A stretch of 64,000 nt of DNA from Escherichia coli. GTDB lineage: Bacteria > Pseudomonadota > Gammaproteobacteria > Enterobacterales > Enterobacteriaceae. The notes under the pieces were generated by a model. The model was not told the origin of the DNA. It did no database searches and saw nothing but the letters and a program-made list of their open reading frames with translations. The stretch lies in the NCBI RefSeq assembly GCF_024223415.1, contig NZ_CP100500.1. The stretch is one strand, 5' to 3'. This document shows, piece by piece, positions 13,190 through 58,981 of the stretch (the stretch's first letter is position 1; each line of letters starts with the position of its first letter). The position numbers were made by a program, and so were the translations under genes.

Positions 13190-13645
13190 TTATTCAACAC
13201 CTGAATCCCCCGCAGCTTCTCTCCCCTTTATAAAACGCCCCTTCCGGAATCCAGACCGCTGCAGTGCACGACGAAGATGACCGTATACCGTCTTGTCATT
13301 CTGCCCCGTCTCTTCTGTAATCTCCGCAATACTTAAACCTCTGTAATACCGGTTCAGTACCGCTCTGCGCTCTTCCAGCGTCAACACACCTCCGGCCGCT
13401 CTCAGATTCAGCATCGACTTATTCAGAATACAGCAGGCCTCTCCGGTAAAAAGAATACGAACAATATCTGTATACTCATCATCACAGAATACAAAATAAT
13501 ATCTGAATGACCTGCCTGACTGCACCCTTCTTCTGTCTGATATGGCATCTTCTATATATCTGATTCGACTGCTTACGGTTCCAAATATCTCTCGCAGGGC
13601 TTTTTCAAAATAAATATCTCTCGTCGCCAGGATTATATCCAGCAT
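13190..13645 (-). CDS. Small protein with sigma-70 region-4 / LuxR-type HTH (putative transcriptional regulator)
   Basis: 151 aa; C-terminal LTLEERRAVLNRYYRGLSIAEITEETGQNDKTVYGHLRRALQRS resembles ECF sigma region 4. Confidence 0.5.
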   Translation of the reverse strand: MLDIILATRDIYFEKALREIFGTVSSRIRYIEDAISDRRRVQSGRSFRYYFVFCDDEYTDIVRILFTGEACCILNKSMLNLRAAGGVLTLEERRAVLNRYYRGLSIAEITEETGQNDKTVYGHLRRALQRSGFRKGRFIKGREAAGDSGVE

Positions 13646-13705: not shown

Positions 13706-14833
13706 TCAGAACTCAAAATTCACACCAGCATTCCACGATGCGGATGACCCACCTGCAGCAACTGCAACTTTTCCTGCCACATTCTCTGTGAAACGGTAGC
13801 CCACGCCCACCGCAATGGCCTGCTCATCACGGTAACCACCAACGGCTGCTGTCGCGTTAAATTTTCCAACACTGTATGGCTGGAAAAGACCGGCCAGTGC
13901 CGCGCTCTGGGCTGCACTCTCCCTTAACTCCTTCCGGTTCTCTTTAATCTGCTCCTGCATATTATTCATTCTCTCTGTCGCCATCTTCTGCCAGGCTTCC
14001 GTCAAATCCAGACGATGACTGTTATTCCTTATCGCTGCTGTATTTGAGGCTATTGCTGCATCCGTCTGCGCCCTGTTCTTCACAAGCACATCGCTGAGAT
14101 GTTCTGCCTGGCTTTTCACCTCGTTACGGACAGTACGCACACTGCTGTCTGTATATGTACGCGTCTCGTCCAGAACATCCGACTTCACCGCATCCGTGTA
14201 TTCCTGCGCAGAAGCCCTGGCAGCTGTAATATTACCGTTAAGTCTGTTTTCTGCCGATTCCACTCGACTCTTAGCATCAGCAACAGCATCACGGTAGACA
14301 GCTCCTATCTCACCGCGCAGGGCATCCCCCGACTCCCGTACAGCATCTGCAATGGCGTTGTCCATCTGTCCTTTTGTGGCCGCATCACTATCCTTAACAC
14401 CATCTGAAACATTTATAATCCGGCGGGTTTCCGGTGCACCATCAACTGAAAATCCATATCCTGAAGGACCGGCCCCTACAGAAAGTACATTGCTTTCTCC
14501 ATTCACCTGAGAGCCATACCCCAGAGCGACACTGTTGTCTGCATTAAAAACAGCTGTATTATTTCCCACAGCCATGGATTTATCCGCATCCCAAATTATT
14601 GCATCGGAACCAACAGCAAAGTTTTTTCCAGTAACACTACCATCACTGTTAAAATTTCCATTTCTGTCAACCACAGTTGCACTTTCAAGTGAATGAGTGC
14701 CATTATCAATCCAGATAATACCCGTCGATGACTCAGTAAGTGTTTTATGAGCCAAAGCCTGAGATGAGAGCAGCAGGGCCACACTCACTGCCAGCGCGCT
14801 TTTCTTTAAAAAAGCATCACGTCTTTTAAGCAT
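13706..14833 (-). CDS. Trimeric autotransporter adhesin with YadA-like C-terminal anchor (Eib-like immunoglobulin-binding protein family candidate)
   Basis: ATG at 14833 gives 375 aa with signal peptide MLKRRDAFLKKSALAVSVALLLSSQALA, coiled-coil stalk, and C-terminal anchor ending ..WNAGVNFEF. Confidence 0.7.
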   Translation of the reverse strand: MLKRRDAFLKKSALAVSVALLLSSQALAHKTLTESSTGIIWIDNGTHSLESATVVDRNGNFNSDGSVTGKNFAVGSDAIIWDADKSMAVGNNTAVFNADNSVALGYGSQVNGESNVLSVGAGPSGYGFSVDGAPETRRIINVSDGVKDSDAATKGQMDNAIADAVRESGDALRGEIGAVYRDAVADAKSRVESAENRLNGNITAARASAQEYTDAVKSDVLDETRTYTDSSVRTVRNEVKSQAEHLSDVLVKNRAQTDAAIASNTAAIRNNSHRLDLTEAWQKMATERMNNMQEQIKENRKELRESAAQSAALAGLFQPYSVGKFNATAAVGGYRDEQAIAVGVGYRFTENVAGKVAVAAGGSSASWNAGVNFEF

Positions 14834-15237
14834 TCTGTTATTCTCCTGTATTATTACTTCACCAGCCAGAACGGTAGTGCGGAGCAAAAATACAGTGATA
14901 AGAATCCTCTTTTATTAATTTAATAATATCAGGAATATTATTGTGTATAATATGCGCCCTCAATTTAAGCAGCAGAAAAGCAATGACGCGAAAATCATTA
15001 AAATACATAAAGATAAAACATCATAACTATAATTATAATAAGCGCGCTTATTTTAGCATCTGAACATTTAAAGTACTGCTATCACAAAACAATAAAAATC
15101 CTGGGTAATATCTCTGATGATTGAATGAGAAATTCACGATGTCTGGTGAGAATTCTGTTCAAAACGAGGAATGCAGACGTACACGTGGCACGCACCACGT
15201 GATCCGTAGAAAAGCCTCTTGTTACGAATTTCGTAAA

Positions 15238-39494: not shown

Positions 39495-39821
39495 TCAGGG
39501 ACGTGATGGCGTAAAGATAAATTGTCTCTTCACTCCCTGACGGGGACTATTCTTTTCAAATCTCCATTTCGCCATGGCCTTCACCACTTCATCACGAAAC
39601 AAATTATGAGGCTCTGAGCGGAGAAAAACGATCCGTGTCACAGTCCCGTCAGCACCAATATCGAACTTAACCTCAACCAGCCCCTTGATATAATTTGCTG
39701 CAGCATATTCCGGATATCGTGGATACACCGTCACTAATTGCCGGGGCTCATCAGCTTTTTGCTGCGAGCATCCCACTGCCAGGGCAGATAACAGAAAAAG
39801 TAGTGAAAGGCGTCTTTTCAT
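39495..39821 (-). CDS. Lipoprotein consisting of a TonB C-terminal-like domain
   Basis: ATG at 39821 (AGGA RBS) gives 108 aa: lipobox LAVGC then ..YPRYPEYAAANYIKGLVEVKFDIGADGTVTRIVFLRS.. resembling TonB_C. Confidence 0.6.
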   Translation of the reverse strand: MKRRLSLLFLLSALAVGCSQQKADEPRQLVTVYPRYPEYAAANYIKGLVEVKFDIGADGTVTRIVFLRSEPHNLFRDEVVKAMAKWRFEKNSPRQGVKRQFIFTPSRP

Positions 39822-40453
39822 TTTTATTCCTACGGGTCTTATTCTGACAATATATCCTGTGTTCCAGACTGCCACATCACCACATCCTGTGCCATTATCT
39901 GACTCACATTACATACATCGCATCAGGATACAGTAGTAGCACTTTCTGTAATACAGCTTCCGGTTTCTTCCACCATCGCACCGGACTGGCGAGCATGAGG
40001 GACAAACCCGCGAACCATAAACGCGGTAAAAACCCGGTGTGCATCGTTTTTGATTATTCCCGCACACTCGCGCAGAAGGAGTTCCCCGTCGGGCTACGGT
40101 CATGGTTAATGCGGGAATACAGCGACGATACAGCGCATGATGTGTCAGGCTTGAATACCTTTATCCGTTAAAAGGGATATCAGTTAAGTTATCCCGTGTA
40201 GGGTATAAGCCATTATCAAAGCCACTCTGTAGGGAGTGGCTTTTGTAATGGCAATAAAAAAGCCCCGCGAATGCGAGGCTAAATCCAGGTATTTTTAATG
40301 ACTGGCTCTTATCTCAACGCAGCCCCTTACCGCGCGCCAGATGCTCAATATCAAGCATCAGCAATGAGATGTTTAATCTGGATTCACTCCAGAAGTGATC
40401 ACCACCCTGTCTACAGAGCCAGATGTGAAGGATGATGAGTAAAATTATCGCTA

Positions 40454-40921
40454 TCATCGAAGGCATTGCGTCCTGATGTATTCCTGAAGCGTTCTCAGTG
40501 CTGTTTGGTCGCGGATAATTCCGTCCCGGACACCGAGAACGTTTCGTCCAGCAACTGGAGAGAGTTCGACGGTGGCATCATTGCCCATGCCGGAGGCGCT
40601 GGAGGTTTCGGCTGAGGATGGCACAGGGCATTTTCCTTTGACGAGCACCCTGCCACCATTATCAAGCTTGCGCCGAAGAGCATCATTTTCAGCTTTCGCA
40701 TCAGCTAACTCCTTCGTGTATTTTGCATCGAGCGCAGCAACATCACGCTGACGCTGCTGCATGTCAGCGATGGTGGCGGTCGCCTGCTTCAGCTCACTGA
40801 CTTTTTTATCACGTTGTTCTTTGTAGGCTATGGCGTTATCACGGTAATGATTGACCGCCAACGACAGGCAGACGATGATGCAGATAACCAGAGCATAAAT
40901 AATCGCGGCGACTCTGCTCAC
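40454..40921 (-). CDS. Spanin inner-membrane subunit Rz
   Basis: GTG at 40921 gives (M)[29 protein letters not shown].. matching lambda Rz. Confidence 0.88.
40495..40701 (-). CDS. Spanin outer-membrane lipoprotein Rz1 (embedded in Rz, +1 frame)
   Basis: [21 protein letters not shown].. with proline-rich PKPPAPPAW, like lambda Rz1. Confidence 0.85.
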
Positions 40922-41451
40922 TGATCTATCCCCCAACAGGCTAATGCGCTTTCCTGGTCACGACGAATAACCTGTCCATAGCAGTTATTTGAACGGATAC
41001 GGCAGTCACGCCCACCATCCTTTATCCACCAGCGAATCGCCTCGCAGGCGCCTTTTCGATCACCGGCATTAAGCCGCTTATAAAACGTCGACGGGAAACA
41101 CTTACCGGGGCCAATGTTATAGGGACAGAATGACGCAATACCCGCTTTCTGTGGTTCGGTCAGAGGTACTTTAATATTGCGCTCCACCCATGCCAGTGCC
41201 TTATCACGTTCAATAGCGTTAACCTGGTCGCATTTTTCCTTCGACAGCTTCATTCCGGGAAAAACGGGTTTTCCATCCACCATCGTGGCACCCCGACAGA
41301 TGGTCCAGATGCCGGACCCATCGCGGTATGCCGTTGTGTGGTTACCCTCTTTTTCGTCCAGAAACTGATCAAGTATCTGAGGAGCAGATGCGCCAGCACC
41401 AATCAGCGCCAGAACGGCAGCCGACAGGCCGTATCTGATTTTTGCGTTCAT
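40918..41451 (-). CDS. SAR endolysin (T4-lysozyme-like GH24 with signal-arrest-release N-terminus)
   Basis: 177 aa; N-terminal weakly hydrophobic Gly/Ala-rich segment; resembles phage 21 R-type lysozyme. Confidence 0.82.
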
Positions 41452-41574: not shown

Positions 41575-41952
41575 ATGAACAGTAAAGAAAATTTGCGCAG
41601 TAGATTTTTGCAACTAATGACAGAAAAAGTTAAATCAGCGCTACTTCCACTTATGGTGGATAATAACGAAGCAACGAGCAGCATCCTTGCAGACCCTTAC
41701 GGTAAACTCTCGCATAAAACGCTGGATATTATTATGAGTGCATTAACACCCCGTATGCTTCAACACCTGAAACAAGATATTAACGCATGGGTGAATGAAG
41801 AATTGAGCCCCCCCTGTTCATGGGACAGACATTATGCATGGCAGCAAAAAATGAGGATTTTCAATTCATTATCACTAAAGTTCAGAGAACCGAAACAGCG
41901 TCCCTTCCCTCTGGAATCAGACAAAAAACAACCTGATCCCACAGGCCCGTAA
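41575..41952 (+). CDS. Hypothetical protein encoded on opposite strand between holin and endolysin
   Basis: 125 aa ORF with GAGG RBS and AT-rich promoter-like upstream; inverted-repeat hairpin downstream. Confidence 0.55.
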   Translation: MNSKENLRSRFLQLMTEKVKSALLPLMVDNNEATSSILADPYGKLSHKTLDIIMSALTPRMLQHLKQDINAWVNEELSPPCSWDRHYAWQQKMRIFNSLSLKFREPKQRPFPLESDKKQPDPTGP

Positions 41953-42108: not shown

Positions 42109-42381
42109 TCATATTTCTTTTGGTGCCTTTTTCGCAATCTCAGCCACAGCATGTGCCGTAGCCGGAACATTACCGGCATTAGTTCGTTCCAGAATTTCGA
42201 GCAATATGCGGGTTCGTTTTTCCTGCTCCCGTTTGTTAAGGCGATAAGTAAGAACGCCAAGAATGATACTGAACGCCACGCCGATAATAAATCCCCAATC
42301 CTGCAGTGACAGGCTGGCAAAGAACGCAACAAGTCCTGCGCTGCCGTATGCAGCGTTACTGTATCGTTCGTCCATTCTCAT
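42109..42381 (-). CDS. Pinholin-like class II holin
   Basis: 90 aa, two TM segments and charged C-terminus; pattern similar to S21; paired with SAR endolysin. Confidence 0.72.
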   Translation of the reverse strand: MRMDERYSNAAYGSAGLVAFFASLSLQDWGFIIGVAFSIILGVLTYRLNKREQEKRTRILLEILERTNAGNVPATAHAVAEIAKKAPKEI

Positions 42382-42796
42382 AGTCCCTCACCTCCGCCAT
42401 CCGACATTACGGACGGCAGCAAGTCAGAATCTCGTTATAAAAAAGCCGCACGAAGAGGCTGTTTGTTCAGGTATTTTATCCAGTGCGCCGTAAAACCCCG
42501 ACCTTCAGGGTGTGGAGGATGTCAACATCAATAACTGACATTCTGCCCAAAGCTCCCGAAGATTCCCTTTGCACAATTTCACTGACCGGATCTCAGCACA
42601 AGCCACAGGGAATGGTCAGTGTGACGCTCTCTGTGGCCCCTCCTGAAAAGCCCTGTGGTTTAATCGCGACGGACCTGGCGCGGATATGAAGCAGGCCGTG
42701 AGCACGAGCCTGGAAATTTAGTGCCGACTACCGGAATTGAAGTGGTGGCCTGATGGTTACAACTAAACTGTTCTGCCGACTGAGGTAAGTCGGCAC

Positions 42797-42873
42797 TGGA
42801 CCGCCACCGGGGACTCGAACCTCGCACACTCAACTTAAAGGGTTGACGCTCTTTCCTGATGAGCTAGTGGCGG
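42797..42873 (-). tRNA. tRNA-like gene with non-canonical anticodon loop CCUUUAA (by analogy to Stx-phage argN/argO position)
   Basis: Cloverleaf with 7-bp acceptor, GCTC/GAGC D-stem, TTCGAGT T-loop, CCA encoded; C33 and one T-stem mismatch. Confidence 0.55.
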
Positions 42874-42874
42874 T

Positions 42875-42950
42875 TGGTGGCCCTTGCTGGATTTGAACCA
42901 GCGACCTGGCGATTATGAGTCGCTCGCTCTCACCACTGAGCTAAAGGGCC
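42875..42950 (-). tRNA. tRNA with CAU anticodon (ileX/ileZ-like tRNA-Ile2 or Met)
   Basis: GGCCCTTTAGCTCAGTGGTGAGAGCGAGCGACTCATAATCGCCAGGTCGCTGGTTCAAATCCAGCAAGGGCCACCA folds as canonical cloverleaf. Confidence 0.8.
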
Positions 42951-43070
42951 GGGCGCAGGATAATAACGTTACGAAATCAATGTTGCAAGCATTCAAAAAT
43001 CACCTGGTTAAAAATCACCCTTAGCTCCTCCACCAGCGCATTCACCATGTCTATCCGAGATAAGTGGCAC

Positions 43071-43097
43071 AAAAAAACCCGCTTGTGGGCGGGTTTT
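43071..43097 (-). terminator. Late-operon terminator tR' (target of Q antitermination)
   Basis: CCCGC-CACAA-GCGGG stem followed by U7 on minus strand, about 70-90 nt downstream of Q-like gene. Confidence 0.65.
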
Positions 43098-43160
43098 GTT
43101 TGCTTTTGCCATCACGTACAAAATCGGCAAAATATCAGATTTGCATGAAATATATGCCTT

Positions 43161-43856
43161 TCAATCTACTTTTGCAACACTTTGCTTTGAAAATGCCGCC
43201 TTTTGTTTTGAACGTGTTCTCATTACAAACAATAAAGCCTCACTATCCAGTCGGTGAAAAATGTGTTTCATTGCAACCCAGTGACGAGTAAATGTTTTGG
43301 ACCAGTTTTTAGTTGTCACTCCCGCCAGTAATGCCAGCTCCTGGTATTCATAACTTTCCCCACCAAAAAGTTCTGCTTTTACTGCCTGCGCCGCCAGCCA
43401 GATTAATTTTTTCAGGCGTTCCTGCGTTTTCCCTGCAATTTTTCTGGTACCTGATTGAGTATTAAATTCATTCCACGCCCACTGTGTTATCGCGATCTGA
43501 TATTCCCAACAAATACTCCCGCTGTAACTCCACAACAACCAGGCTTTATGATGTTCTTCAAGAGACAGAACAGCCCGCCGCCACGATGATGTCGAAAACT
43601 CAACCGGGCTGACCAGGGCAATTGATGAGCCTTTCGCCAGTGATTGTTTTCCCGGGATTGGTGGATTATCCCGCGTTATCATTTTTCCAGTCACTTCATC
43701 GCGGTACCGGATTTTTTTACGCCTGTAACGCCCTGTATCAAACATGGCATTCTCCTGCCAGGCCTCAAGCTGCCCTTTTGTTGATCCACTCAAATCGGCG
43801 GTGGCAATCATGAGTTGCTGACGAACAAACTGTAAATACTGGTTATTCATGCGCAC
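43161..43856 (-). CDS. Putative late-gene antiterminator Q (QuuQ/YdfT-like)
   Basis: 231 aa; sits downstream of rusA and DUF968 gene and upstream of tR' and lysis genes, as QuuQ in Qin prophage. Confidence 0.55.
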   Translation of the reverse strand: MRMNNQYLQFVRQQLMIATADLSGSTKGQLEAWQENAMFDTGRYRRKKIRYRDEVTGKMITRDNPPIPGKQSLAKGSSIALVSPVEFSTSSWRRAVLSLEEHHKAWLLWSYSGSICWEYQIAITQWAWNEFNTQSGTRKIAGKTQERLKKLIWLAAQAVKAELFGGESYEYQELALLAGVTTKNWSKTFTRHWVAMKHIFHRLDSEALLFVMRTRSKQKAAFSKQSVAKVD

Positions 43857-44212
43857 TCCAGTTCTGTGATTTTTATCCCCAACCGCCCACCAGGAACAAG
43901 CTGACCGCGCACAATATTAATTTCATCAAACTGCTCGTCGTCTATGAGCAGCCCAGCATGCGTCAGTGCATCCAGTGGTGCCTTCAGGATATTGTCCAGG
44001 TCACGACGGCGCTTATCCGGTGGCTCTGCAATAATTTTTATTGCCAGCCTTCCTGACAGGTTTAATTTCAGTCGCTGCTGGCGAACAATAAGCGCCACAT
44101 CACGGCGATAACGCTCACCGGCTTTTGATACAAAATATGTGCTGCCACGACGTCGCCAGTAGGTATTCACCGTCGGCGGGTAAGGCAAAACAAATTCTAT
44201 GCGTTCAGTCAT
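43847..44212 (-). CDS. rusA: Holliday junction resolvase RusA
   Basis: 121 aa; ..PDKRRRDLDNILKAPLDALTHAGLLIDDEQ.. matches RusA. Confidence 0.9.
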   Translation of the reverse strand: MTERIEFVLPYPPTVNTYWRRRGSTYFVSKAGERYRRDVALIVRQQRLKLNLSGRLAIKIIAEPPDKRRRDLDNILKAPLDALTHAGLLIDDEQFDEINIVRGQLVPGGRLGIKITELECA

Positions 44213-45268
44213 TCATGCTTTCCACTTCAGGACACCCGAATTTCTCGCGTGCATTAAAAAACGAATCAGCAACAACAGCTGGCTGCCGTGTTTTTCTTCA
44301 AAATCTTTTACCCCGGCGTGCAGTTCGTTATGACATTTACGGCACAGCGGAATAACAAACAAATCATCAGCCTTTGTTCCCATCCCTCCCAGTCCATGAC
44401 CAATGATGTGATGCGGATCATCTGCCTGATTACCGCACGTCATGCATTTCTGCGTTTTTACCCAGCGCGTGTATACAGGCATCTCTTCCCGTTGTGGTTT
44501 CTGGCGCTGGAGATACTGAGCCGGTGACTCCGGATCAACGGCAATGCTGACCACCGCCTCTTCCTGTGGCGGGTTTTGCTGGTGGGCGTGAGGCAGCGGC
44601 GCAAGATTTTTTGTGCGCTGCTTCAGTATGCTGGTGGCGGTCTGCTCTCCCGGTACGATGTCGCTTTCACGGTACATTGAGCGGATTTTTTCCGCACGCA
44701 ACCCCAGCGAACGACGTAATACCGCTTCCGGTAGCGCGTCCGCCACCTGATTGCGGACCGCCCACCAGGATAATTCAGCCAGAGATAATTCACGCTCCTG
44801 CGTACCGCTTATTGCGTGACCGATGACGTCAATCATCCATGCTGACAGGTTTTGATGAGCAAGTTGCTCGAGTGATTCGGATGTCTGGTCACGCAGCTGG
44901 TTGTCGCAGTGCCAGCACAACACCATCGCGCCGGTACCGTAACGATGTATGACGATTTCACTGTGATGATAGTCACCATGAGGCCACTGGCAGGATTTGA
45001 CATGACGCAACAGCCAGTCAGACAGTGCCCCAGCGCCGCCAACAGCACGAATCACCCGATCATCGCTGAAAAATGGCAGTAATGATTTATCCTCCGCCAG
45101 CGGCTGGCGAACGGCAGGGACGACTCCGGATGGCAGGCCGCACGTACTTTTCGGTTCCGGCTCCACCAGCACTCGAGGATTGTGAAATACCGGCATGGAT
45201 TCACGACCGGGCTTAAGGACCACCAGCCCGAGTTCCGGTACCAGAACAGGTCGAAGTAATACCCGCAC
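44213..45268 (-). CDS. DUF968 family protein (YdfU-like) with C-terminal HNH-like Cys/His motif
   Basis: 351 aa; C-terminal CMTCG..HHIIGHG..CRKCHNELH. Confidence 0.7.
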   Translation of the reverse strand: MRVLLRPVLVPELGLVVLKPGRESMPVFHNPRVLVEPEPKSTCGLPSGVVPAVRQPLAEDKSLLPFFSDDRVIRAVGGAGALSDWLLRHVKSCQWPHGDYHHSEIVIHRYGTGAMVLCWHCDNQLRDQTSESLEQLAHQNLSAWMIDVIGHAISGTQERELSLAELSWWAVRNQVADALPEAVLRRSLGLRAEKIRSMYRESDIVPGEQTATSILKQRTKNLAPLPHAHQQNPPQEEAVVSIAVDPESPAQYLQRQKPQREEMPVYTRWVKTQKCMTCGNQADDPHHIIGHGLGGMGTKADDLFVIPLCRKCHNELHAGVKDFEEKHGSQLLLLIRFLMHARNSGVLKWKA

Positions 45269-45269
45269 G

Positions 45270-45623
45270 TTACCTCCAGATCCGTTGCTGGAATGTGCGG
45301 GACGGACGCGGTGGGCGTTCGGAGTAAGGAAGCCTGACGGAGATTATCCAGTGACGATAATCGAGGCTGAGGGCTTTCTTAATCTCGTATCCGTGTCTGC
45401 GGTAACACTGAATCAGCCATTCGGCCTGTTCTTCAGTGCATGGAGGGTGTTGGTACCAGTCGGTTTTAAATACGCGAGAACGCCGCCCATGCCTGCTGGC
45501 ACGAACGGCATCAGAATTGTGATTTTTGGTATTGTGCGCCATTTGTTTTCTCTGCTGGCGCAGCAGGTGCCAGTTGTTCAGGCTAGCGTGCAGATTGTAA
45601 ACCAGAATTCCCGGAAAAAACAA
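45270..45623 (-). CDS. Hypothetical nin-region protein
   Basis: 117 aa ORF abutting DUF968 gene. Confidence 0.45.
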   Translation of the reverse strand: MFFPGILVYNLHASLNNWHLLRQQRKQMAHNTKNHNSDAVRASRHGRRSRVFKTDWYQHPPCTEEQAEWLIQCYRRHGYEIKKALSLDYRHWIISVRLPYSERPPRPSRTFQQRIWR

Positions 45624-46270: not shown

Positions 46271-46426
46271 TTACTCCTCAGGTTCGTAAGCTGTGAAGAC
46301 AGCGACCTCCGTCTGGCCGGTTCGGATTCGTACCTCGCAGAGGTCTTTCCTCGTTACCAGTGCCGTCACAATGACGGTAATACAGATGACGATCAGGGCG
46401 ACTAACATCGCCTTTTGCTGCTTCAT
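46271..46426 (-). CDS. hok: Hok/Gef family type I toxin
   Basis: 51 aa MKQQKAMLVALIVICITVIVTALVTRKDLCEVRIRTGQTEVAVFTAYEPEE, nearly identical to remembered HokD/RelF. Confidence 0.88.
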   Translation of the reverse strand: MKQQKAMLVALIVICITVIVTALVTRKDLCEVRIRTGQTEVAVFTAYEPEE

Positions 46427-46717
46427 AGCCTGCTTCTCCTTGCCTTTCGGCACGTAAGAGGCTAACCTAGATTTGCCGTTCATAGATTGAGCCTCAGATT
46501 AATGTTAAGCGTCTTGCCGGACGCGTAATGTTAACTGGGGCTTTTCTCTATCTGCCTTTTGGGGTTCATGCCTGAGACAGATAGCCTCAAGCACCCGCTG
46601 CAATTCTACTTAACTCTCCTTTTCCCGCAAACCATTTTTATCCCCAGCGGCAAATCGAATACACCACCAGCGCCACCGCCATCGCAATTCCTACCGTTGT
46701 GAATGCTTCAGGCCAGG

Positions 46718-52675: not shown

Positions 52676-53292
52676 AACCAATTTCCTCTCGGGTAACAGA
52701 CCCCTCAGAGGATACCACCTCGCCTGACGTGGTTAAAAGCAGGCACACAACACGAAAGCGCACGGCGAGGTAGCTGGTTCATATATAGCCTGTCGTTAAA
52801 TTTTCGTCGACCGTGCGCTTCCGGTTGTGGCACTCCGCGAAATGGCGCGGCGGTAAGCATGGCGGGGTTCCCTTCCCCTTGAGGACACCGGGTTGTCAGG
52901 TTGACCATGCGCCTGAGTGACAACCCCGCTGCAACGCCCTCTGTTATCAATTTTCTGGTGACGTTTGGCGGTATCAGTTTTACTCCGTGACTGCTCTGCC
53001 GCCCTTTTTAAAGTGAATTTTGTGATGTGGTGAATGCGGCTCAGCGCACGCGGAACAGTTAAAACCAAAAACAGAGTTATGGGTGGATTCTCTGTATCCG
53101 GCGTTAATTGTTAACTGGTTAACGTCACCTGGAGGCACCTGGCACCGCATCAACAAAGTTCACTTCGGTGATGAAAGGTAAGAGAAAATGTTGAATGTAG
53201 CTATTGAAAACCAGTACGGGTGGAATTATAGTGCACCTGCACCTCATAAAACGGGTGCCGGGCGTGGAAACCCGAAAGTTACTCGAGCGCAT

Positions 53293-53316
53293 AACCGCGC
53301 CGAAGCGGTTTTTTTA
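53293..53316 (+). terminator. Intrinsic terminator in leftward early leader (tL-like)
   Basis: AACCGC-GCCGAA-GCGGTT followed by T7. Confidence 0.6.
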
Positions 53317-53484
53317 TGCGTAATGCACAGCCACATTCAGATAATGGTGGGGCGTGCAGGGCAGCTGCAAGGCTGGCCGGGTTCTCGAGTGACCGGTATT
53401 TCCACCCCTGTACGTCTCGCCACCCTTATGGTCGTGGAAAGCCTCGGTGGTGAGTTAATTAACTTAACACTTGAGGATGCCATC

Positions 53485-56940: not shown

Positions 56941-57189
56941 ATGGCAAGACTTATTCTGCTCACTGAGTGGGCAAAAGAGGAATTCAGTGAACCGGTCCCT
57001 ACTCCGGGTACGTTAAGTAAATACGCTAAAGCCGGAATGATATTTCCTCTCCCCAAAAAAGTAGGAAGGCACTGGCGAGTGGATCCACGCGCTCGCTTTG
57101 TCGGAATGGTAAACAAGCCGGAGGTGATCGCCACAGATCACCCTGCTTTGAAGAGGATACTGGAAGATGGCGCGCCCGCGAAAATATAA
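56941..57189 (+). CDS. xis: Excisionase-like protein
   Basis: 82 aa basic protein overlapping int start. Confidence 0.65.
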   Translation: MARLILLTEWAKEEFSEPVPTPGTLSKYAKAGMIFPLPKKVGRHWRVDPRARFVGMVNKPEVIATDHPALKRILEDGAPAKI

Positions 57190-58297
57190 AACCGATGTTC
57201 CGGGTTTATCTCCGTATTTTGACAAAAGAAATAACAAAGTTTACTGGCGTTACAGGCATCCCATCACAGGTAAAAATCATGGACTCGGCAGTATTGACCA
57301 GAAACTGGCGGAAACCATTGCAGCAGAAGCGAACAGCCGTCTTGCCAGACAACAAATGGAGCAAATTCTCAGTCTGCAGGAGAAAATTATTAGTGATACC
57401 GGCGGCGCATCAACCGTTTCCATTTTTCTGAATAATTACAGAAAAATTCAACAGGAAAGATATGAGAACGGAGAGATCAAACTCAGCACGCTGAAGCAAA
57501 AAGCGGCTCCTCTCAGGGTGTTTGATGAACGTTTTGGAGCCAGGCCGCTAGATGCCATAACCGTAAAAGATGTGGTATCGGTGCTGGAAGAATACAAGGC
57601 AAAGGGACATAACAGAATGGGACAAATTTTCAGGAAGGTATTGATCGATGTTTTCCGGGAGGCTCAACAAACGGGTGATGTTCCGCCAGGCTTTAACCCG
57701 GCTGAATCGGCAAAAAAACCGCAAGTGCGGATATCAAGACAGCGACTGACTTTTGATGAGTGGATGATGATTTATAACGCAGCGGAAAAGGATGGTTACT
57801 TTTTACAGCGCGGCATGCTGCTGGCACTGATGACGGGCCAGCGTCTTTCGGATATTTGCAAAATGCAGTTTTCGGATATCCGGGATGGTTACCTTCATGT
57901 CGAACAGCAAAAAACAGGAGCCCGGATAGCCATTCCTCTGGCTCTGCGTTGCGACAAATTAAATCTTACCCTGGGTGACGTGGTGTCATCCTGTCGTGAT
58001 TACATCCTTAGTCCGTGGTTATTGCACCATCATCACGCTAAGGGGATGGGTAAGCGCGGCGGGATGGTTAAACCAGCAACATTAACAGTCGCATTTAAAA
58101 AAGCCCGGGATTCTGTGGATTACAACTGGCGTGCTAATGGCACGCCACCCTCTTTCCATGAGCAAAGATCTTTATCAGAACGATTGTTCAGAGAACAGGG
58201 AATTGATACCAAAATTTTGCTGGGCCATTCGAATCAAAAAATGACCGATATTTACAACGACGCACGCGGTAAAGAGTGGAAAAAACTGGTTATTTGA
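57167..58297 (+). CDS. int: Tyrosine-type site-specific integrase
   Basis: 376 aa; adjacent to prophage end at ompW 3' end. Confidence 0.88.
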   Translation: MARPRKYKTDVPGLSPYFDKRNNKVYWRYRHPITGKNHGLGSIDQKLAETIAAEANSRLARQQMEQILSLQEKIISDTGGASTVSIFLNNYRKIQQERYENGEIKLSTLKQKAAPLRVFDERFGARPLDAITVKDVVSVLEEYKAKGHNRMGQIFRKVLIDVFREAQQTGDVPPGFNPAESAKKPQVRISRQRLTFDEWMMIYNAAEKDGYFLQRGMLLALMTGQRLSDICKMQFSDIRDGYLHVEQQKTGARIAIPLALRCDKLNLTLGDVVSSCRDYILSPWLLHHHHAKGMGKRGGMVKPATLTVAFKKARDSVDYNWRANGTPPSFHEQRSLSERLFREQGIDTKILLGHSNQKMTDIYNDARGKEWKKLVI

Positions 58298-58310
58298 TAA
58301 CCAGTTTTGC
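58283..58310 (+). terminator. Hairpin AACTGGTTA-TTTGA-TAACCAGTT plus TTTT overlapping int stop
   Basis: 9-bp inverted repeat then T-run. Confidence 0.5.
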
Positions 58311-58340
58311 AGAAGAGTTTTGCAGAGGTTTTGCAGAGAA
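58306..58340. repeat. Three tandem copies of GTTTTGCAGA(R) between int stop and ompW stop
   Basis: AGTTTTGCAGAAG AGTTTTGCAGAG GTTTTGCAGAG. Confidence 0.6.
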
Positions 58341-58342
58341 AA

Positions 58343-58981
58343 TTAGAAGCGGTATCCGGCAGAGAACATAAACACCCACGGATCCAGTCGTACCGCGTCT
58401 TTCACGGGGGTTCCATTAAATTTATAGCTGGCGGTGGTGTCGATATCCATGTACCACACTGACATATTAACCAACCAGTCACGGTTAATCAGATAATCAA
58501 CCCCCACCTGCCCGGCAGCTCCCCAGGAATCTTTCAGACTGAGATCGGAAAGCCCCGCCTCTTTGCCATGATCGTTAAATCCATTATCAAAGAAGGTGGT
58601 GTAGTTAATACCTGCCCCAACATAAGGACGGAATTTGCTGCTGGCATCACCAAAATACCACTGCGCCATCAGTGTTGGCGGCAGATGATGAACGGTTGCA
58701 ATATCGCCGGTCGCCCGGGTGCCGATTTTATGGCGGAACGGCGTCGCTGCCAGTAATTCCACACCAATGTTGTCGGTCGCCATATAAGTAAACGTCAGGC
58801 CCAGTTGAGTGTTATTGGTCACGCTGAATCCACCCAGACTTCCTAACGTACCACCAGCACCTTCTGTAGGACGTACGGTTGCAGAACCTGCACGCATAAA
58901 AAATTCTCCTGCTTCATGCGCAAAGGCACTGCCAGAGAGAAGTGTTGTTACTGCCAAAGCCGCCACTGTTAACTTTTTCAT
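58343..58981 (-). CDS. ompW: Outer membrane protein W
   Basis: 212 aa; MKKLTVAALAVTTLLSGSAFA signal; ends ..FSAGYRF. Confidence 0.93.
   Translation of the reverse strand: MKKLTVAALAVTTLLSGSAFAHEAGEFFMRAGSATVRPTEGAGGTLGSLGGFSVTNNTQLGLTFTYMATDNIGVELLAATPFRHKIGTRATGDIATVHHLPPTLMAQWYFGDASSKFRPYVGAGINYTTFFDNGFNDHGKEAGLSDLSLKDSWGAAGQVGVDYLINRDWLVNMSVWYMDIDTTASYKFNGTPVKDAVRLDPWVFMFSAGYRF

Follow-up and report, generated by a model that had tools for sequence, protein, structure and literature searches.

In the Stx phage 933W the late region is ordered Q, pR′, tR′, pT, ileZ-argN-argO, stx2AB, nanS-p and S-R-Rz. The tRNA names ileZ, argN and argO follow the annotation of the 933W record and Plunkett et al. 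1999. A second described group, the PPompW prophages of STEC O145:H28 (LC5678xx; Nakamura et al. 2021, PMC8112680), is stx-free and has its integrase next to ompW. Both ompW and yecE are documented integration sites of STEC prophages (PMC8112680), as an earlier note on the present DNA had stated.

The window analysed here is a stretch of 64,000 nucleotides from Escherichia coli (contig NZ_CP100500.1). It contains a prophage whose late region has the same order of functions as that of 933W. The earlier note saw in it a late region resembling that of a Shiga-toxin-converting phage, with an empty toxin slot. We conclude, with a probability of roughly 85%, that the region is the standard late-operon control of a mosaic lambdoid prophage whose virion genes are phage 21/lambda-like and whose Q is of the phage-82 type, and that the prophage is neither a Stx phage nor a derivative of one.

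Layout and predicted control of the late region

Q, a tR′-like terminator, a tRNA cluster and a holin-endolysin-spanin cassette had all been claimed and were all found, on the minus strand. They run in the order Q, strong terminator, two intact tRNAs, one decayed tRNA, non-coding spacer, holin, endolysin and Rz/Rz1. The features are as follows.

43161..43856, minus strand: late-gene antiterminator Q, phage-82 type (PF06323, E = 1.4e-90)
43149..43177, minus strand: candidate late promoter pR′ (TTGCAA-17-TATATT; consensus scan, 9/12 matches), overlapping the end of Q
43074..43097, minus strand: tR′-like intrinsic terminator, a GC hairpin downstream of Q (CCCGCCCACAAGCGGG then U7)
42960..42988, minus strand: pT-like tRNA promoter site (TTGCAA-17-TATTAT; consensus scan)
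42875..42950, minus strand: tRNA-Ile2, anticodon CAU, ileZ (ARAGORN; Rfam 72.5 bits)
42797..42873, minus strand: tRNA-Lys(UUU) with C33 on an argN-type scaffold (ARAGORN; Rfam 44.4 bits)
42719..42794, minus strand: decayed tRNA-Thr(UGU) pseudogene (Rfam 19.8 bits)
42382..42718, minus strand: non-coding spacer of 337 bp, from the tRNA cluster to the holin start codon
42640..42718, minus strand: conserved post-tRNA segment with a hairpin that has lost its former U-tract (homology to 933W and stx-free relatives)
42473..42526, minus strand: 52-bp relic of a small gene resembling VT2-Sakai orf72, from its 3′ end
42109..42381, minus strand: holin, 90 aa (phrog_1350, E = 3e-29)
41575..41952, plus strand: ORF between holin and endolysin (phrog_1853, unknown function, E = 5e-41)
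40918..41451, minus strand: endolysin R, a lysozyme (PF00959)
40454..40936, minus strand: spanin Rz, with Rz1 embedded at 40495-40701 (PF03245, PF06085)
57167-58297: integrase at the right prophage end, adjoining ompW (58343-58981)

The earlier note ascribed the Q-tRNA-lysis layout to Stx phages; it turned out to be generic to lambdoid phages and not Stx-specific. The region has the make-up of a lambdoid late operon, in which Q is followed by a promoter-like site (43177-43149) and a predicted intrinsic terminator (43097-43074), with co-oriented holin, endolysin, Rz and Rz1 genes downstream. The Q protein is 77% identical to phage 82 Q and 96% identical to PPompW Q. The terminator folds at -16.4 kcal/mol (z = -3.9), and none of 200 shuffles was equally stable. 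The candidate promoter lies directly upstream of it, which fits a lambdoid pR′. The pT-like site aligns with the 933W element annotated 'pT; putative tRNA promoter', both hexamers being conserved. From these consensus matches, and by analogy with lambda, phage 82 and 933W, we infer the use of pR′ and pT and antitermination by Q. RNA polymerase would acquire Q at the late promoter, immediately downstream of the Q gene, and in this modified form would pass through tR′. The read-through transcript would then cover the tRNAs, the spacer, holin, endolysin, Rz/Rz1 and the packaging and virion genes. Since the tRNAs appear to have a sigma-70-type promoter of their own, they could also be made in the lysogen. 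In fold tests on the window sequence no convincing intrinsic terminator was found between the tRNAs and the holin. A candidate just before the holin (42431-42455) folds at only -5.3 kcal/mol (z = +0.2) and is not claimed.

The holin is annotated by RefSeq as 'phage holin family protein' and its Pfam holin matches are weak, below the cut-off. The plus-strand ORF between holin and endolysin gave no match in a Pfam search, and relatives have a homolog that is annotated as a partial pseudogene. At the amino acid level the endolysin shares 92% identity with 933W R, but Rz only 46% with its 933W counterpart. The virion genes (12200-37000) have their best matches in phage 21 and lambda-like phages, with 94.8% identity over 64% of the query. 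A backbone comparison showed that they are not those of the best-matching Stx phage genomes.

The spacer and the absence of stx

About 340 bp with neither stx nor a substantial ORF had been described between tRNAs and holin. The interval measures 337 bp and contains only small ORFs, one antisense ORF of 68 aa and fragments of about 32-57 aa. The 68-aa ORF was rejected as a protein gene, having no Pfam or PHROG match. At the Rfam gathering scores (29 bits for tRNA) the only matches are the two intact tRNAs, and none falls in the spacer. Permissive Rfam matches (isrK-like at 16-23 bits, leader peptides, and Plastid-ycf2 antisense to ileZ) fall far below threshold and are taken as noise from terminator and tRNA shapes.

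stx is absent from the window. Searching all 64 kb by tblastn with StxA2 and StxB2 of 933W gave a best E of 0.29, and 933W nanS-p, S and Q likewise have no tblastn homolog there. The spacer has no DNA similarity to stx or to the 933W sequence downstream of stx. Alignment to 933W bore out the homology of the tRNA module: pT, ileZ and the second tRNA together are 85.5% identical over 200 bp, and ileZ is identical at 76 of 76 positions. The first ~57 nt after the tRNAs (42717 to 42661) align with 933W L004 3377-3437, the hairpin segment that precedes stx2, with a score of 34 (shuffles 15.8 ± 2.1, maximum 25). The hairpin itself, at -11.3 kcal/mol, is no different from shuffles. The alignment breaks off some 26 nt short of the stxA2 ATG. 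Past this break point the spacer stays homologous to the stx-free PPompW prophages and to two viral contigs (L078 and L113).

This edge could be read as the remains of a deletion, in which an ancestral stxAB between the tRNAs and the holin was lost and the 337-bp spacer was left. The homology to sequence immediately upstream of stx2 would fit, as would the endolysin resembling 933W R and the relic gene fragment, which points to a history of rearrangement. The relic has matches of 90-94% identity in HK97, in a segment after tfa, and in orf72 of VT2-Sakai, and encodes DILHTLKVGVLRRTG followed by a stop, compared with DILHALKDGVLQRTG and a stop at the end of orf72. However, the gene that it matches has another place in both Stx phages and HK97, away from stx, and we rejected the relic as a stx-linked sequence; it comes from the 3′ end of a gene that is small and unrelated. 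Several further observations stand against a deletion. There is no stx similarity at the DNA or protein level, and none to 933W downstream of stxB, to nanS-p or to the sequence upstream of S; beyond the break point the match passes to stx-free relatives. Among 120 viral contigs carrying the same tRNA-Lys, not one has stx. The Q and holin types of the window occur in no true Stx phage of a collection of 50,697 phage records, which may lack rare Stx phages with a Q82-type Q; the phrog_1350-type holin is present in eight of these records, none of them Stx. Five records labelled 'Stx2a-converting' do have this Q, but are composites in which Q sits in the stx-free PPompW part. With no stx remnant, no post-stx homology and a spacer that continues into stx-free relatives, the stx-loss derivative suggested by the earlier note is left without support, and we regard it as highly improbable. 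Its 'empty toxin slot' holds in so far as the tRNA module and the post-tRNA edge are homologous to 933W, and fails in that there is no loss scar and the Q and holin types are non-Stx.

An ordinary stx-free lambdoid, our preferred reading, agrees with what occupies this position elsewhere. The site is one of optional cargo in lambdoid phages, holding stx2AB and nanS-p in 933W. Seven contigs of the tRNA-Lys set have cargo there, and in a few relatives the site is taken by nanS-p, a 143-aa ORF or a likely methyltransferase. An S holin was recognised in 75 contigs of the set and lies 500-550 nt after the start of the tRNA-Lys in 66 of them, so a short spacer is the rule, and most often the site is a cargo-free interval of about 300 bp. 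The present spacer is probably recombination scar tissue, made up of the conserved post-tRNA hairpin segment, unique sequence, the 52-bp relic and the ribosome-binding site of the holin. Of 5,426 complete E. coli genomes, 19 carry the whole module at 99.7-100% identity.

A cargo site of this kind might also serve as an acceptor, prone to recombination and able to gain a stx cassette by homologous exchange through the shared tRNA module and endolysin. Its flanks are indeed common with 933W: to one side lie pT, ileZ, the second-tRNA scaffold and the post-tRNA segment, to the other R, whose similarity was measured at the protein level. The tRNA cluster is precisely where the mosaic breaks, PPompW homology ending at 42797 and yecE-prophage homology at 42973, and the cargo in relatives is varied. 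However, the property is generic, equally true of many lambdoid prophages and not peculiar to this locus, and the sequence bears no sign that such exchange happened or is favoured here. We consider the reading as an acceptor backbone unlikely. Because the stx-free Q-tRNA-lysis layout is the ordinary condition of lambdoid prophages, neither toxin loss nor special risk should be deduced from it.

Compared with 933W, then, the conserved elements are pT, an identical ileZ, the argN scaffold in the second tRNA, the post-tRNA hairpin segment and R. In contrast, the features of a Stx phage, namely stxAB between Q/tRNA and the lysis genes, a Stx-type Q, nanS-p with an S-type holin and a Stx backbone, are missing from the window. 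Q belongs to a different family (phage-82 type, PF06323), as does the holin (phrog_1350), Rz is divergent and the virion genes are phage 21/lambda-like. Within the ileZ-argN-argO module the second tRNA reads Lys instead of Arg, and a dead tRNA-Thr stands in the place of argO.

Prophage ends and stx-free relatives

The closest likeness to the PPompW prophages is in the stretch ydfU-rusA-Q-ileZ-tRNA-Lys(C33), which is 94-96% identical; the post-tRNA segment is also homologous. The integrase adjoins ompW in both, with 88% DNA identity. The PPompW prophages differ in carrying T3SS effector loci and a yecE-like attB, and their tail genes are only about 75% identical to those of the window. The left end also differs, lying in the window at yecD/yecE and not at ompW: an aspS-yecD and yecE-type junction is found in place of yciE and an ompW remnant. 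Since one flank is yecD/yecE and the other ompW, an inversion between prophages is implied. No complete RefSeq E. coli genome covers at least 80% of the left-junction query. The best complete RefSeq E. coli match reaches 96.5% over the late region, and none matches the window end to end.

Other relatives share the late region more closely. The E. coli GF4 prophage, with both ends at ompW, has the same arrangement of Q82-type Q, ileZ, tRNA-Lys, decayed tRNA-Thr, spacer and holin, and is 100% identical across the decayed tRNA-Thr, spacer and holin. With the yecE prophage of E. coli ECCNB12-2 the identity is 97-98.6% over a segment that runs from the decayed tRNA-Thr across the spacer and takes in the holin, lysis, terminase and tail genes. 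The non-Stx lambdoid vB_EcoM-606R7 has, like GF4, the same Q82-type Q, ileZ and C33 tRNA-Lys as the window. It differs, together with the non-Stx lambdoid PhiR47_1, in that the Thr(UGU) and Gly(UCC) tRNAs are both intact and match host thrU and glyT exactly, and in that the holin is a Qin/933W-type S, preceded by a spacer of about 290 bp that contains a strong terminator.

The tRNA cluster and a probably recoded tRNA-Lys

ARAGORN called two tRNAs (CAU and UUU); the third, decayed one, already implied by the range 42700-42960 given in the earlier note, was found by homology. ARAGORN labels the CAU tRNA as tRNA-Met. We reject this label and assign the gene as ileZ (Ile2), given its complete identity to 933W ileZ, which the 933W record annotates as tRNA-Ile, and the tRNA-Ile annotation by RefSeq of an identical gene in E. 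coli GF4. The annotation should accordingly read Ile2, not Met. ileZ would supply AUA decoding. Among Ile codons AUA has a share of 18% in the prophage, three times the 6% seen in the host genes that flank it; AGR makes up 20% of Arg codons in the prophage and 4% in the flanks.

The decayed tRNA-Thr, which escaped ARAGORN and scores below the Rfam gathering threshold, lies hidden inside the interval thought to be empty and deserves annotation. Its identity to the intact tRNA-Thr in related phages is 82.5%. The intact phage copy has the same sequence as K-12 thrU, and the decayed one departs from it at 15 of 76 positions. Pairing is disrupted in the D, anticodon and T stems, and CCA now reads CTA. 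The third tRNA is a dead copy of thrU. A decayed tRNA-Gly following it was considered and rejected, there being no similarity; the homology to phages with the Thr-Gly pair ends at 42721.

Nearly all tRNAs have U at position 33, the U-turn nucleotide. The earlier note had remarked on the unusual anticodon loop of the second tRNA (CCUUUAA), and the sequence and Rfam alignment confirm that its position 33 is C. C33 is present in 120 of 120 viral contigs carrying this tRNA-Lys, and no U33 form was found among 2.9 million viral contigs. The gene aligns to 933W argN(UCG) and to the Arg(UCU) tRNA of DG341-1, and probably derives from the argN scaffold. Intermediates with a UUU anticodon on a G30-C40 stem were sought in IMG/VR, and the scan returned only unrelated contigs, many with GVMAG (giant-virus) names. 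The four-helix cloverleaf is maintained: 94.6% of cells are paired, compared with 29-52% for slid controls, and there are compensatory changes at pairs 27-43 and 30-40. It has one A51-C63 mismatch and a U73 discriminator instead of A73. The UUU anticodon, the main determinant for LysRS, is present.

These features would be explained if the C33 tRNA-Lys(UUU) on its Arg scaffold were a replacement tRNA that escapes the tRNA-Lys nucleases PrrC, PARIS AriB and P2 Old in lytic growth, the tRNA cluster being partly an anti-defence device. We put this forward tentatively. The lack of the known PARIS and P2 Old cleavage motifs is what suggests it. [quoted passage not shown] AriB cleaves E. coli tRNA-Lys at U36AAUC|A41, and a U39 to A change abolishes cleavage (PMC12409363); the corresponding site in the phage tRNA is U36AAGUU41. 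For cleavage by P2 Old, positions 28-30 and 40-42 must carry CNG motifs that pair with each other (PMC12445682). In the Arg(UCU) and argN forms of the scaffold these read CAG/CUG, and in the Lys version CAA/UUG through a swap of the pair (G30A/C40U). The retention of the cloverleaf, with compensatory changes, also fits this role. The prophage is enriched in AUA, AGR, ACA and GGA but not in Lys codons, so codon supply explains the tRNA-Lys least well. Most relatives pair Lys(UUU) with Thr(UGU). These are the two prime AriB targets (PMC12409363), and thrU is the main Old target (PMC12445682).

Other observations weigh against such a role, which is proposed from sequence features. C33 had no effect on the yeast gamma-toxin (PMC2275089). 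Given the A51-C63 mismatch, U73 and the modest Rfam score, the tRNA may work only weakly, or may simply be carried along by a module that is young and widespread. In relatives the Thr and Gly genes have the sequences of host thrU and glyT and so are not resistant variants, and host thrU protected little against Old (PMC12445682). Every tRNA in these clusters reads A-ending codons, so plain codon supply also fits.

[quoted passage not shown] Both are phage-encoded and have an anticodon stem-loop unlike that of the host at the AriB site, where T5 differs at positions 39 and 41 and the prophage tRNA at positions 39-41. T5 is a virulent phage and its tRNA-Lys has been validated experimentally; the present tRNA, known from sequence, belongs to a temperate lambdoid and has C33 and an Arg-tRNA scaffold. 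It is possible, though we lean against it, that an argN-type tRNA-Arg was recoded by U33C, C35U and the change of G30-C40 to A30-U40 into a nuclease-resistant tRNA-Lys, a temperate counterpart of the T5 tRNA in the cargo site that holds stx elsewhere. The wider value of the locus would lie in this tRNA, whose fixed C33 and recoded scaffold appear to change features used by PrrC, PARIS AriB and P2 Old. Were it functional, common E. coli prophages would join virulent phages such as T5, in which tRNA-based counter-defence has been shown so far, and there would also be a tie to classic P2-lambda interference.

Organisation of the late region

A prophage of about 46 kb lies in the window, and its late genes are encoded on the minus strand. 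An earlier note had claimed the order Q, terminator, tRNAs and then holin, endolysin and Rz/Rz1, and an interval of about 340 bp ahead of the holin; the layout was borne out and the interval measures 337 bp. Terminase genes and then lambda-like head and tail genes follow Rz/Rz1, and the locus is an ordinary, already annotated kind of lambdoid late region.

Features of the late region (window coordinates)
44213-45268, minus: DUF968/ydfU
43847-44212, minus: rusA
43161-43856, minus: Q antiterminator (PF06323, E = 1.4e-90)
43177-43149, minus: promoter-like site overlapping the end of Q
43097-43074, minus: intrinsic terminator (-16.4 kcal/mol, z = -3.9)
42988-42960, minus: second promoter-like site (pT)
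42875-42950, minus: tRNA, anticodon CAU
42797-42873, minus: tRNA, anticodon UUU
42719-42794, minus: degenerate tRNA-Thr(UGU)
42382-42718, minus: spacer, 337 bp
42718-42640: conserved post-tRNA segment with hairpin
42640-42527: sequence unique to this rare module
42526-42473: 52-bp relic, matching the 3' end of VT2-Sakai orf72 and an HK97 fragment after tfa at 90-94% identity
42472-42382: holin leader, ribosome-binding sequence GGAGGTGAGGGACTATG
42109-42381, minus: holin, 90 aa (phrog_1350, E = 3e-29)
41575-41952, opposite strand to the late genes: ORF of unknown function
40918-41451, minus: endolysin
40454-40936, minus: Rz (Rz1 at 40495-40701)

An ARAGORN run called two tRNAs, with anticodons CAU and UUU. 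The first is identical at 76/76 positions to 933W ileZ and RefSeq labels the identical gene tRNA-Ile; ARAGORN therefore mislabelled an Ile2 (lysidine) tRNA as "Met". The third, decayed tRNA-Thr differs from thrU at 15/76 positions and scores 19.8 bits on the Rfam tRNA model (threshold 29). Its D, anticodon and T stems are broken and CCA has become CTA; the acceptor stem is intact. It is far more diverged than its neighbours, which fits an origin in a different mosaic module.

The spacer contains only a 68-aa antisense ORF, with no family match, and fragments of about 32-57 aa. In 933W and in PPompW (the stx-free ompW prophages of STEC O145:H28) the post-tRNA hairpin has a U-tail and forms a terminator, whereas the window copy has lost the U-tract. 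The relic encodes DILHTLKVGVLRRTG*; a small gene like VT2-Sakai orf72 is its source type, the HK97 copy being an isolated fragment. Further copies of the relic sit in genes whose annotation is phage head-binding domain protein, and many E. coli plasmids have it over 35-41 bp at 95-100% identity. Of 5,426 complete E. coli genomes, only 19 carry the whole module from decayed tRNA-Thr through spacer to holin, at 99.7-100% identity; among the 15 of these 19 matches listed, most genomes with a stated origin came from chickens. We note that a 126-aa protein with a TonB C-terminal domain (39495-39875), which may be a moron, is encoded after the lysis cassette and ahead of the terminase genes.

Mosaic origin and prophage ends

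Homology to PPompW covers 42797-45563 and the integrase end, and the yecE-integrated prophage of E. coli ECCNB12-2 matches 11320-42973 at 97-98.6%. These tracts share only ileZ and the second tRNA, which marks the tRNA cluster as a junction between modules. An E. coli GF4 prophage with both ends at ompW has this junction too, so the junction is older than the event behind the window's ends. On the left the prophage is flanked by aspS-yecD with a yecE-type junction (11320-12500); on the right (57167-58981) an ompW-type integrase adjoins ompW and yciC. In K-12 the terminus lies between the yecD/yecE and ompW/yciC loci. One integration cannot yield both flanks. The simplest reading would be homologous recombination of ompW and yecE prophages through their common late regions, with a large inversion of the chromosome between; inversions of this kind have been described (PMC8112680).

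The left end encodes a trimeric autotransporter of YadA-like type that may be Eib-like (13706-14887) and an HTH protein resembling sigma factors (13190-13645), adjoined by a DinI-like gene (12558-12806). Rfam matches above threshold in the early region (46421-46596, 52953-53004, 53239-53315 and 53340-53427) comprise sok antitoxin, accompanied by a hokD-like toxin, DicF, isrK and C4 antisense RNA.

A tRNA-Lys with C33

The CCUUUAA anticodon loop noted earlier for the second tRNA was confirmed and places C at position 33, where U is near-universal in tRNAs. Its acceptor, D and T arms are common to 933W argN(UCG) and to the tRNA-Arg(UCU) that occupies this position in E. coli DG341-1. The anticodon arm differs from the latter by four changes (U33C, C35U, G30A and C40U), G30A and C40U being a compensatory pair swap. 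By sequence, tRNA-Lys(UUU) is a re-coded argN-type scaffold. C33 is found in all 120 viral contigs gathered by their tRNA-Lys anticodon arm, and a search of the viral collection gave no U33 version. Over 16 distinct variants, pairing in the cloverleaf is 94.6% (slid controls 29-52%), and four pairs changed on both sides, a number reached in only 1/500 shuffles. Pairing, double-sided changes and constancy of C33 together argue that the structure is maintained. The tRNA also has an A51-C63 mismatch and a U73 discriminator.

The commonest cluster in IMG/VR viral contigs L011-L130 is ileZ-Lys(C33)-Thr(UGU)-Gly(UCC), its Thr and Gly tRNAs 100% identical to K-12 thrU and glyT. Re-coding has given the Thr scaffold a UUU anticodon in four contigs, which thereby have a second Lys; switches of anticodon seem common in these clusters. 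The deposited annotations of phages vB_EcoM-606R7 and 689R5 omit the C33 tRNA-Lys, although ARAGORN calls the 606R7 copy (2928-3004); it is probably under-annotated in databases.

Prophage and host flanks differ in their shares of AUA among Ile codons (18% vs 6%), AGR among Arg (20% vs 4%), ACA among Thr (25% vs 15%) and GGA among Gly (22% vs 12%); Lys codons number 53 vs 47 per 1000. On these figures, codon supply accounts for ileZ and for the relatives' Arg, Thr and Gly tRNAs better than for Lys. An anti-nuclease role for tRNA-Lys is a reasonable hypothesis, though less likely than not. [quoted passage not shown] The PARIS nuclease AriB cleaves E. coli tRNA-Lys at U36AAUC|A41, and a U39->A change abolishes this (PMC12409363); the window tRNA reads U36AAGUU41 against U36AAUCA41 in lysT. 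P2 Old depends on CNG motifs paired between 28-30 and 40-42 (PMC12445682); at these positions CAG/CUG is found in the Arg forms and CAA/UUG in the Lys form. By sequence, the window tRNA-Lys lacks both the AriB site and the P2 Old motifs. Against such a role, the relatives' Thr and Gly tRNAs have host sequence and so cannot count as resistant variants, a different anticodon nuclease was unaffected by C33 (PMC2275089), and conservation may reflect only the youth of a widespread module. The C33 tRNA-Lys is the sole lead at this locus worth following.

The empty slot and relationship to Stx phages

The absence of stx and of a substantial ORF from the interval was upheld by ORF and family searches and by tblastn, in which StxA2, StxB2, nanS-p, S and Q of 933W had no homologue in the whole 64 kb (best E = 0.29); R and Rz of that phage matched at 92% and 46% amino-acid identity. 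The suggestion of a stx-loss derivative found no evidence. Beyond the point where 933W becomes stx2 leader, the window stays homologous to stx-free PPompW (as far as its ISEc20 insertion) and viral contigs L078 and L113, and the spacer shows no similarity to the 933W DNA that follows stxB or precedes S.

None of the 120 viral contigs encodes Stx; Q is of phage-82 type in 78 and 933W type in 13. An S holin was recognised in 75, and 66 of these place it 500-550 nt after the tRNA-Lys start, so a short unoccupied spacer (about 290 bp with the usual Lys-Thr-Gly cluster) is the default. Seven contigs carry extra DNA in the slot, among them four with nanS-p homologs, one whose 310-aa ORF resembles a DNA methyltransferase and one with a 143-aa ORF of unconfirmed identity. 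This variety bears out the site as a general cargo position, at which, as is established, lambdoid late operons carry stx and other morons. Further cargo examples around the late promoter are found in the ECCNB12-2 yecE prophage (NZ_CP033635.1; locus L185, 27059-27352 and 31673-32779), where iss (serum survival) adjoins the lysis genes and a porin gene and ISKpn26 lie between Q and the tRNAs.

By alignment, genuine homology to 933W is restricted to three pieces: the pT-tRNA block, the post-tRNA segment and the endolysin. The first is a 200-bp block (85.5% identity) spanning the annotated tRNA promoter pT, ileZ and argN. In the second, about 57 nt directly 3' of the tRNA cluster align with a hairpin segment upstream of stx2 (score 34; shuffles 15.8 +/- 2.1, maximum 25), stopping about 26 nt ahead of the stxA2 ATG. 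The Q of the window is of phage-82 type (77% aa identity), as in 73 phage records; five are named "Stx2a-converting", but these are composites with that Q in their stx-free PPompW part. The holin type occurs in eight phage records, Stx phages being 0/8. The proposed likeness to Stx phages holds for the common tRNA module and the cargo position, and a special relationship is not supported: Q, holin and virion genes differ, the last being 94.8% identical to those of phage 21.
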